Origin: an uncultured Nitrospiraceae bacterium
GTDB taxonomy: Bacteria; Nitrospirota; Nitrospiria; Nitrospirales; Nitrospiraceae
Direction: 5' to 3'
Assembly (NCBI GenBank): GCA_963730935.1
Contig: CAVSTP010000004.1
Span: 416,001 to 480,000, forward strand
DNA: 64,000 bases
Positions 39,901 to 42,900 of the stretch are shown here, piece by piece. Position numbers: made by a program. The number at the start of each line of letters is the position of its first letter. Positions within the stretch are counted from its first letter, which is position 1.

Positions 39901-42900
39901 CGCTAGGGAAGTTCGCGGTGGTTCAGGAAGTAGTCGTCAACCGATTGGGAGCCGACTGGTAAATTGGCGGTAAGCGGCTACCAGTGTCGGCCATAGTGCC
40001 GGTAGAAGAACCGGGGTCCCCAGTACGGACGGCCATAGTAACCGTAGAAGCCTGGCACGCCCCATGGTCGCCCCAGATACAACCCAATGCCCACCGGCGG
40101 GTACGCGTAGGCATAAGGATAGACATAGGGAGGCGGCACGATCGCAGTGGCAACGGGCGGCTGCGACAGATGCTGTTGAAGCTGTGCCGTGGCCGCAGTC
40201 TGTCGGTCCACCTGACCTTTCAACTGTCCGACCAGATCCTGCTGCGCCTGCACCCGGCCTTCGAGCTGCGCGATCTGCTCCTGCTGATGCTCGATGAAGG
40301 CATTCAGACAGCGGGTCTGTGCCGCATCTGTATAGTTTGAGCATTCCCAAGGCACCTGCGGACTTGTGGCTTCAGCGGACAGGCCATGAAGAGCCATTCC
40401 CATCACCGCCACGCTGAGCAGGAATAATCGCCATGGGAAAGAACGGGAGGATGGCGCGGGCTGAGTGATCATAGGATCACCTCCTTGAGAGACACCTTAC
40501 ACATTATCATGCGTTTTTCAGTTGCGCCAGATCGCCGCCGGCGTTTGCTTTTGTCCCTCTGGAATCCTACAATGCCGCCGCAAGCACAAAATTCCATGGC
40601 TTCCCCGACCATCTCAGGATCCAGCGCAGCCAGACCTCTGCGGCGGCCGTCCTGGCCTGCCGGTCCGCTGAAACGCCGGTTCCAACAACGGCTGTTGAAG
40701 TGGTATGCCAGCTTCGGCAGGGATTTGCCCTGGCGGAAAACCTCCGATCCCTACCATATTCTCGTCTCAGAGGTGATGCTCCAGCAGACTCAGGTGGATC
40801 GCGTGATCCCGAAATATCATCAATTCCTCGATCGTTATCCGAGTTTTGAAAGACTGGCGTCCGCCCGGGTGAAAGAGGTAAAGAAACTCTGGTATCCCTT
40901 GGGGTACAACATCAGGCCGGAGCGTCTCCATAGTATTGCGTGCGAAACGGTCGAGCGGTACGGCGGAAAATTACCCAACGATCACGGCCAGCTGTTGTCG
41001 TTCAAAGGCATTGGACGCTACACCGCTGGCGCCATCCGATCTTTTGCGTTCAATGAGGACGCCGCGATCCTGGATACCAACGTCATCCGCGTGCTGTACC
41101 GCGTGTTCATCGCCAAAGGTGATCCGCGGAAACACACGGTGAAGTTATGGCGGCTGGCGGAAACGCTGATTCCTCCCGGCAAAGGCTACGATTTCAACCA
41201 GGCCCTGATGGATTTCGGCGCGATCCGTTGTACGGCACGGACACCTTCATGCGAGTCATGCCCCATGACGCCGATCTGCAAAACATATCCGTTCGCGAGA
41301 GGAAAGAGCTCATGGCGAAAGTCGTCGAAGTAGCCGCCGGCTTGATCTGTGATGACGGCCGTTATCTCATCGCCAAACGCCGCACGGGCGTGCATCTTGC
41401 CGGACTATGGGAGTTTCCCGGCGGGAAGCGCGAACAGGGAGAAAGCCTGGAGGAATGCTTGCAGCGGGAACTGTACGAAGAGTTGAGCATTCGTATCGAC
41501 ATTCCCGTTCCATTTCGGATCATCCGGCATGAGTATCCTGAAAAAATCGTGGAGCTGCATTTCTTTCGCTGCACCATCGGGGAGGGCCGGGCGACCCCGC
41601 TCGATTGTGCGGAAATCCGGTGGGTATATCCATCGGAGATGGGGCAGTACCAATTTCCACCGGCCGATCGTCCGATCATCGAGGCATTGCAACGAGATGC
41701 GGCGGGGCCTCGCAGATGAAAGTGGTCCTCGACATCGAAACCATCCAGTGCACACGCGAGGACTGGGTCCGCCTGGCGGGAAAATGCCGGCCGGTTGAGG
41801 CGGAGCCTCCTGAATTCGATCTCTTTGCAGCGGGAGAAGCCGAAGCCGAACGCCAGGCAGAGGAGGAACAATACGCAAAATCGGCGTTCGACGGAACCTA
41901 CAGCTCGATCGTCTGCATCGGCCTGTTGGAGTTCTCCGATCAGATGGAGCCCCGCGGAGCGGTTGCGTGGTATGGCGGCAACGAACGGGAGCTTCTCCGT
42001 CAGTTCTGGAGCCGTCTGGCACAGGACAAGCCGTCGTTGTTCATCACACACAACGGCCTCGGGTTCGATCTACCTTTTATCAGGAAACGCTCCATCATTC
42101 AGCAGGTCAAACCCAGCATGGACATCAGCCTGACCAAGTTCAGAGTGGAACCGGTGTATGACACGATGGCCATCTGGAGTAATTGGGACACGCGTGGGTG
42201 GGTCAAGCTCGACGTATTGGCGCGGGCATTGAATGTGGAAACCAAATCGGGCAGCGGCGATCAGGTGGCCGCGATGTGGGGGCAGGGAAAGGGACTAGAC
42301 CTCGCGCAGTACTGTTTGCAAGACACGTATGTTACGTATGCCTGCTATTGCCGGATGAACTTCCGACAACCACTGTCCCGTGAAGTCGTCCTGCTACAGC
42401 CCGAACTGCTCGACGTTGGTTGATTCGCTAGGGGGTCCGATAGGCCTGCGCCTTTTTCTTCTTCGGTGGAACCTTCACGGTCGCTTTGAGCGCTTTAATC
42501 TCTTCGTCACGGTCTCGCAATTCCCGTTTCATCCAGTCGGACTCTTTGCGGAGCACCTTGATTTCCGTCTCCTTCTTGACGAGCATGTCCTTGGCTCGAT
42601 TGAGTTGCACTTGCATTTCCGCCGGCCCCTCTCCCTCGATCGTCGCCATTGCTGCGGGCACTGCCATTCTCGAACTGGTGGCTGGAGCCGTGCCTGTCTT
42701 CGCGACTGGCACCGCCGCCGGCATCGGTGCTTGCGCAAGGGCATGGTAGTCGATGACTTGAGCGATCACACCCGCCCTGCCGCCTGCGGCATAGGGGGGA
42801 GCCTGCTCTGCTCGGGCGGCCGATTCTGGCACGAACGTCGTGGCTCCCGCGCCTTTCGAAATTGTGAAATGAATGGCACTCTGCTGGACGTAAATGCTGC

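Follow-up and report, generated by a model that had tools for sequence, protein, structure and literature searches.

The window analysed here, a stretch of 64,000 nucleotides from an uncultured Nitrospiraceae bacterium, carries on its forward strand a CTD-less MutY-type adenine DNA glycosylase (P0001, 253 aa, 40572..41333, with an alternative start possible at M9), a MutT/NudG-type Nudix hydrolase (P0002, 135 aa, 41312..41719) and a predicted PolB-like 3'-5' exonuclease (PF10108, 41716..42423). The glycosylase comprises an HhH-GPD catalytic domain (residues 35-242, 40674..41297) with the clade signature PLGYNIRP (40896..40919) where canonical MutY has GLGYYxRA, and a [4Fe-4S] motif, C220-x6-C227-x2-C230-x5-C236 (41229..41279). 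It matches G. stearothermophilus MutY over residues 11-218 only and TIGR01084 over positions 2-209 of 277 (score 230.6, below the cut-off of 286.5), and its stop codon lies 17 residues past the last cluster cysteine, leaving no CTD. P0001 is the sole MutY in a genome that is 99.9% complete. These results confirm a preliminary description of the locus, according to which the only MutY ends after its catalytic domain and overlaps a separate MutT-like gene with a complete Nudix box and no FSH loop.

The overlap between the two genes spans 22 nt (41312..41333), with mutT in the -1 frame and without a conserved frameshift, and probably brings about translational coupling. ATGA coupling in turn links mutT to the exonuclease gene, the third of the operon, which is present in 44 of 57 Nitrospiria loci and is followed on its 3' side by a weak terminator-like hairpin (42433..42457; one found against 2.2 in shuffled sequences); the promoter and terminator scan of the locus gave no signal above chance. 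A programmed -1 frameshift or read-through was considered and rejected, as the -1 frame is the usual frame of ATGA and TGATG overlaps. Of 24 junctions compared at genus and order level, the one in the window included, 23 are in that frame, whilst one of the 24 has its stop two codons upstream and all three relative frames occur among 58 wider mutY-mutT pairs, both of which speak against frameshifting. Assembly error as the cause of the split was likewise excluded, because the genes of relatives likewise end shortly after the domain. A contig from the RNA library of a related strain runs across the junction and differs there only by an insertion of 3 nt, although a contig of this kind is no proof of a transcript.

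We compared P0001 residue by residue with E. coli MutY, Nth and Mig.MthI, taking the MIG and MutY pocket determinants from the available text of PMC2714593. Every MutY catalytic, pocket and cluster residue checked was present, including all four [4Fe-4S] cysteines, and no MIG determinant was. The MutY catalytic residues Glu37 and Asp138 correspond to E67 and D168 within the set E67, Q71, Q72, T73, V75, L110, Y112, Y150, D168, N170, Q210, M213 and D214 (in E. coli, in the same order, E37, Q41, Q42, T43, V45, L80, Y82, S120, D138, N140, Q182, M185 and D186), which contains the whole adenine pocket (Q42, V45, Q182, M185 and D186 in E. coli numbering). An AlphaFold2 (AF2) model (pLDDT 91) superposes on MutY catalytic-domain and core fragments with a TM of 0.9. 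The genome's three other HhH-GPD matches are Nth-like (n = 2) and AlkA-like (n = 1), and Fpg is encoded elsewhere in it, as in all five genomes tested. Judged by these residues, P0001 would be a monofunctional [4Fe-4S] adenine glycosylase. A T:G/U:G mismatch enzyme of the MIG type, which length and fold alike would allow (TM 0.90 and 37% identity to Mig.MthI), is scarcely credible in view of the MutY-type pocket residues Q42, V45, Q182 and M185, and of the MutY-type clade (99/99) of our catalytic-domain tree, which leaves out the MIG rows. Moreover, the neighbours of the clade to which P0001 belongs, named 'S' here, are DNA-repair genes, whereas four of six plasmid MIG-like loci adjoin a cytosine methyltransferase or restriction gene.

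In P0002 the Nudix box (G38-I60, 41423..41491) keeps all catalytic positions of GX5EX7REUXEEXGU, namely G38, E44, R52, E53, E56 and E57, and has serine for the last glycine (G59), a position that is variable in standalone MutTs too. R23 and H28 are also kept, and D119 stands where E. coli MutT has N119, as in NudG. A hairpin of MutT-type sequence, HEYPEK (41528..41545), occupies the position of the MutY H-x-FSH loop, and no such loop was found in P0002 or in any neighbour MutT aligned. P0002 is the genome's sole NUDIX_4 match above cut-off, and scores 96.7 against TIGR00586 (cut-off 97.9). All 45 neighbour MutTs aligned have R23, E44, R52, E53, E56 and E57, with H28 in 40 and D119 in 40, compared with N119 in 13 of 15 standalone proteins, a shift that our preferred reading does not account for; N119 of MutT matters for 8-oxo-dGMP binding, according to the accessible part of PMC4338371. 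Standalone MutTs with 39-50% identity to P0002 occurred in 12 of the 17 Nitrospiria genomes with canonical MutY that were searched. In the Nudix trees, for which the standalone sample was mostly from Nitrospirota, neighbour MutTs nested among standalone MutTs with the canonical CTDs apart, whilst forcing neighbours and CTDs into one clade was not rejected (AU p=0.066, in a tree from which L210, whose N-terminus is incomplete, was left out). P0002 therefore has the sequence of an ordinary free MutT/NudG-type pyrophosphohydrolase, probably acting on (oxidised) dNTPs.

Among 31 near genomes, 29 carry the glycosylase gene. Each of the 27 relatives in which it was read whole stops within ~20 residues of the domain end, and in a 28th, where the gene is split over two contigs, the 3' piece also stops after the domain. 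A MutT lies next to the glycosylase in 23 of these 28 relatives and is missing from that position in five (all four f4 genomes and the closed genome G028), contrary to the earlier statement that every relative has one. No match to P0002 was found genome-wide in these five Nitrospirales genomes, and a PF14815 search of four of them gave no match, with a control relative positive. In G028 the mutT gene has been lost cleanly, and mutY overlaps the exonuclease gene itself. The trait had also been described as fixed in Nitrospirales and one sister family, with normal MutY in the rest of the class. Clade S occurs in two Nitrospiria families outside the order (f5, 6/7; f36, 6/7), so the proposed boundary is too narrow, whilst the other Nitrospiria bear out the second part of the statement: all 15 MutYs read continue into a Nudix CTD, none with an intact box, and their loops read H-x-[FY][ST]H (n = 14) or QTFTH (n = 1). 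The 20 MutYs read from other Nitrospirota classes are either canonical or X-domain forms without a cluster. In genome G195 mutT also lies beside a MutYX.

A GTDB scan with the motif W[YR]PLGYN[IV]RP returned at least 120 matches. Among those listed, most lay outside Nitrospirota and belonged to Acidobacteriota, followed by Nitrospirota, Rokubacteria/Methylomirabilota, Omnitrophota, Armatimonadota, Verrucomicrobiia and Moduliflexota; a trait thought to be fixed in Nitrospirales is thus that of a multi-phylum and patchy clade. In all 80 S-motif loci with flanking sequence the frame ends soon after the catalytic domain, without any fusion. A downstream MutT is present in 58 of them (Acidobacteriota 27/43, Nitrospirota 22/23, Rokubacteria 5/5, Omnitrophota 2/2), a few of these with an intervening gap of 500-750 nt; in six, all within the 43 Acidobacteriota loci, it is encoded on the opposite strand, and in 16 it is not within the flank. 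Of 24 genomes from outside Nitrospirota, 22 had no MutY-like match at 1e-28 other than the S protein. Across 151 genomes of one Acidobacteriota class, S was present in 41, six had none, and the remaining 104 gave best matches of 35-46%, mostly over both domains (not individually read). Since S is patchy in two classes, with one subgroup each, it appears to have replaced canonical MutY, by transfer or differential loss, and within Nitrospirales replacement is the simplest reading. The lineage is set apart from canonical MutY by PLGYNxRP, R47 and DTN in place of GLGYY, T47 and DGN; R77 and K81 are invariant in it, and its tails are short (median 12 residues) and net positive in 65 of 78.

This distribution bears on the preliminary description's view of the two genes as two chains of one MutY. 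The genes of a split enzyme would be expected to stay together and in one orientation, a constancy that partner losses and opposite-strand loci contradict, and the MutT is dispensable, lacks an FSH loop and has standalone counterparts, so that the two-chain view is not supported. MutT, which five Nitrospirales genomes appear to lack, which some Acidobacteriota have in inverted orientation and which groups with standalone enzymes, is better regarded as an operon partner in the 8-oxoguanine repair (GO) system than as a detached subunit. A relic of the pre-fusion MutY, whose MutT chain would bind the glycosylase as an 8-oxoG-reading CTD in trans and from which canonical MutY would descend, is for the same reasons a distinctly unlikely alternative. 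The tight overlap in 23 of 28 relatives, linkage across phyla, repeated fusion and a fused lineage with canonical spacing (both described below) would suit it, as would the fact that neither S with canonical MutY (p=0.12-0.34) nor neighbours with CTDs was rejected as a grouping. However, the five genomes without a partner have an intact glycosylase, mutT is equally ATGA-coupled to an unrelated exonuclease and adjoins a MutYX in another genome, and the tree joining S to canonical MutY has the lowest weight of the three that were not rejected. What counts against our own reading of an operon partner is that mutY-mutT linkage recurs in at least five phylum-level groups, above what loose clustering would need.

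In the catalytic-domain tree, canonical MutY (100/99) and S (99/97) formed separate clades, in agreement with a 222-row tree. Forcing S together with six Nitrospirota canonical MutYs was rejected, with AU p=0.020 and then p=0.002. The first careful tree was suboptimal, and the values p=0.020 (fission) and p=0.34 (S with canonical MutY) derive from it; the four-way test is better, giving weights of 0.71 to S basal, 0.21 to S with the X forms, 0.085 to S with canonical MutY (p=0.12) and 0.001 to fission, for groups that were fixed after the first tree had been seen. In the best tree, whose bootstrap values are inflated because a short run was started from it, some CTD-less proteins are basal, S is sister to the X forms (SH-aLRT 81) and further CTD-less proteins are sister to canonical MutY; these non-S lineages are metagenome proteins without genomic context. 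The S-basal and S-plus-X trees lie ~3 log-likelihood units apart, and none of the best trees makes S the sister group of canonical MutY.

The tree check that the preliminary description had lacked, of ancestral state against fission, thus places S outside canonical MutY in the best trees, and the AU test rejects a recent fission of canonical MutY as the source of these sequences. It is accordingly most improbable that the clade's ancestor had a canonical, possibly bifunctional intact-box MutY whose gene was divided in two. Intact-box canonical MutYs do exist (such as Nitrospirota f14 and P0224/P0241), as do in-frame fused S proteins, but the canonical catalytic clade leaves out S, the fused S forms are nested as tips, and HAY[ST]HF, which is absent from the neighbour MutTs, occurs in every canonical CTD with an intact box. 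The position of CTD-less lineages at or near the base of the MutY-type enzymes makes it parsimonious that S never had a CTD, and because MIG and Nth are also single-domain, the fewest steps are obtained with a CTD-less ancestor to which the Nudix and X domains were added separately. It is thus plausible that S has lacked a CTD from the outset, and it need not be the stock from which canonical MutY came. The suggestion that this is the state from which full MutY arose survives in part, in that a CTD-less ancestral state is parsimonious, whereas S itself does not appear to be the sister of the canonical enzyme.

Derivation of S from X-domain MutYs of the actinobacterial, chloroflexal or haloarchaeal type, by loss of the winged-helix CTD and with mutT gained later, would leave the rest of our interpretation as it stands, and we consider it unlikely, albeit the strongest of these competing origins. 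In a set of near-full-length 50% representatives, an X domain is present in 44 of the 49 other [LM]GYN proteins and a Nudix CTD in none, in contrast to LGYY proteins, of which 55 of 67 have a Nudix CTD. GYN, R47 and DTN are common to S and the X forms, and both the nearest non-S relatives by similarity and the sister group in the best tree carry the X CTD. Nevertheless, S is sister to the X group rather than nested inside it, and R47 and DTN look primitive because other lineages without a CTD have them too. No X-motif remnant was detected in 78 S tails and no X-profile match for S rows, and an X-bearing ancestor requires several independent losses.

A search for longer relatives returned at least 120 proteins; 61 of those listed have the S motif, and 14 of these a C-terminal Nudix part. 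The box is intact and the FSH loop absent in 13 of the 14 fused proteins, and an in-frame fusion was also seen in one GTDB genome (L235). Fusions occur in Acidobacteriota and Rokubacteria, where the Nudix domains of the fused proteins fall within the unfused neighbour MutTs from Acidobacteriota (99*) or from Rokubacteria, and in both domain trees the fused S forms are tips among split forms. In a 68-row S tree the 12 fusions used need seven changes, at least four of which are forced by well-supported branches: in-frame fusion of the pair thus happened on four or more separate occasions. Left out of this count were P0196 and P0220, which look frameshifted, and P0138; the single-record fusions P0143, P0160, P0167 and P0176 could be sequence errors. 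P0138, on one short contig, joins an S domain to a canonical HGFTH CTD and may be chimeric.

An established fused lineage (the P0125/P0128 group) comprises six clusters, with some members on contigs of 1.6-2.0 Mb. Another cluster consists of four fused records and, on one contig, a near-identical split pair, and one protein is a glycosylase-UDG-MutT triple. The spacing from the last cysteine to WEFP is 50 residues in 56 of 72 canonical MutYs and in five of the six established fused clusters; because five of 26 split Acidobacteriota pairs already have a spacing of 49-51, the canonical value in the fused lineage is a lead only. AF2 modelling of the fusion P0128 (15 sequences; pTM 0.49) gave pLDDT below 50 for the cluster region and linker and is uninformative on packing.

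Overall, we favour, with a probability of about 0.6, an old multi-phylum S lineage in which a CTD was most likely never present, which lies in a GO operon with an ordinary MutT and in which fusions have arisen in parallel. P0001 would remove A opposite 8-oxoG or G by its N-terminal domain alone, probably with weaker discrimination of 8-oxoG over G than canonical MutY, whose place S would have taken, by transfer or differential loss, in Nitrospirales and the two other Nitrospiria families. P0001 and P0002 would act as two independent GO-system enzymes of one operon rather than as two subunits; we infer the absence of binding between them, their substrate preferences and the reason for their linkage. 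MutT-type pool cleaning would keep 8-oxo-dGTP from DNA, and would be more important with MutY present. Co-expression may be useful because MutY fixes A:T to C:G changes when 8-oxo-dGTP is misincorporated opposite A, and in mutT strains A:T to C:G transversions become rarer when mutY is lost, as reported in the available text of PMC13511376. As the genes abut, in-frame fusions could arise repeatedly. The products resemble MutY in shape but have an intact Nudix box and lack the FSH loop, and they may replay in parallel the proposed origin of MutY rather than represent its ancestor. When its CTD is removed, E. coli MutY is still active in vitro but performs no OG:A repair in cells (PMC10993402, available sections), so compensation is expected in S; R77, K81, the PLGYNxRP loop and the short basic tail are speculative candidates. 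A further reading, that S is the earliest-branching living MutY, always CTD-less, whose catalytic domain alone finds OG:A by a mechanism not yet described and so protects high-GC genomes of several phyla, and which has repeatedly been re-fused to mutT, with the P0125/P0128 group and its canonical spacing as an independent replay at an early stage, is one that we hold only tentatively.

The CTD of MutY is held to be essential for function in cells. A CTD-less protein as the only MutY of Nitrospirales, many Acidobacteriota and Rokubacteria would imply another route to 8-oxoG:A or a different job, and the natural series of split, freshly fused, box-plus-FSH and degenerate-box forms offers a direct test of the proposal that the CTD came from MutT. 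Fusion as the origin of MutY is put as a hypothesis in the accessible part of PMC11078426, and Noll et al. 1999 is cited for a MutY-MutT fusion origin in the available text of PMC10993402 and PMC2714593. Surveys of MutY drop CTD-less homologues before analysis, as far as the accessible text of PMC11078426 and PMC13511376 goes. In full-text literature that included few subscription papers, we found no description of a MutY lineage that has the cluster but no CTD, nor of its linkage to mutT or of fusions of this kind, and the supplements of surveys could include members. Both parts belong to known families and clustering of GO genes explains their adjacency, so the arrangement is less surprising than first stated. 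It is a conserved new variant of MutY, and the independent fusions with a live Nudix box are the new point.

Compared with known systems, P0001 lacks both the MutT-like CTD and the FSH loop of canonical MutY from E. coli and G. stearothermophilus and falls in a separate clade. MutYX (Eggerthella, PDB 8UUC) and other X-domain MutYs, the sister group in the best tree, share with S the GYN motif class and the want of a MutT-like CTD. MutYX has no Fe-S cluster and reads OG by a 67-residue X domain (PMC12631127, available text), whereas P0001 keeps the four cluster cysteines and has no second domain. Mig.MthI (PDB 1KEA) is, like P0001, a single-domain, cluster-bearing HhH glycosylase of equal size, yet its T:G pocket residues R47, A50 and L187 (R, A and L at E. 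coli positions 42, 45 and 182) are absent from P0001. P0002 has its intact Nudix box in common with E. coli MutT and NudG, and is MutT-like at R23 and H28 and NudG-like at D119. The engineered E. coli MutY C-delta-225 has the same domain content as P0001; unlike that fragment, the S enzyme is natural and has been conserved in several phyla, where it is the sole MutY.

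The C-terminal domain (CTD) combines an intact Nudix box with an HAY[ST]HF loop in several canonical-lineage MutYs, encoded at loci L179 (contig C103 of genome G088) and L181 (contig C112 of G047) or represented by proteins P0224, P0241, P0306 and P0332. Genome searches found that the sole NUDIX_4 match of G047 and G088 was, in each case, the CTD of their own MutY. These MutYs are candidate bifunctional MutY/MutT enzymes, and they are also a candidate closer model of the original MutY-MutT fusion than the split pair.

MutY-type pockets were also found in CTD-less proteins outside the multi-phylum CTD-less clade S, namely P0281, P0287, P0344, P0347, P0252, P0261 and P0272, which were observed as isolated protein sequences and have matching end positions within pairs. 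Several of the S-motif glycosylases P0170-P0177, from more than one cluster, carried an N-terminal PF04191 (phospholipid methyltransferase-like) domain, and a single record, P0176, joined an S glycosylase, a uracil-DNA glycosylase and an intact MutT in one triple fusion. Separately, a MIG-like open frame (L230:701-1351), immediately preceded by a DNA cytosine methyltransferase, lies on Thermus thermophilus plasmid NZ_AP025620.1 and is absent from its gene table.

Within the window, mutT is coupled to a PF10108 3'-5' exonuclease gene (41716-42423, + strand), which was present in 44 of 57 Nitrospiria loci, still adjoins mutY in G028, where mutT was lost, and possibly functions in DNA repair. The zinc-ribbon Nudix hydrolase encoded 2.6 kb upstream of the glycosylase-MutT pair (37378-37926, + strand) has no kinship to MutT and served as the outgroup. 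Genome searches at 1e-28 detected no MutY-like match in the Nitrospiria genomes G279, G285, G291 (family f32) and G150 (f6); a separate search found no MutT-like match in G279 and G150 either.

Clusterless MutYX-type genes (L187-L198) were observed in other Nitrospirota classes (families f11, f13, f16, f26 and f28), with a mutT adjoining one of them divergently in G195. A profile built from the tails of clusterless Nitrospirota proteins also matched a C-terminal winged-helix X domain on [4Fe-4S] cluster-bearing MutYs (L225, L226, L227 and approximately 45 representatives), including those of Thermomicrobium, Natrinema, Arthrobacter and Ktedonobacterales. Whereas MutYX as described carries the X domain on a clusterless enzyme, these MutYs combine it with the cluster.
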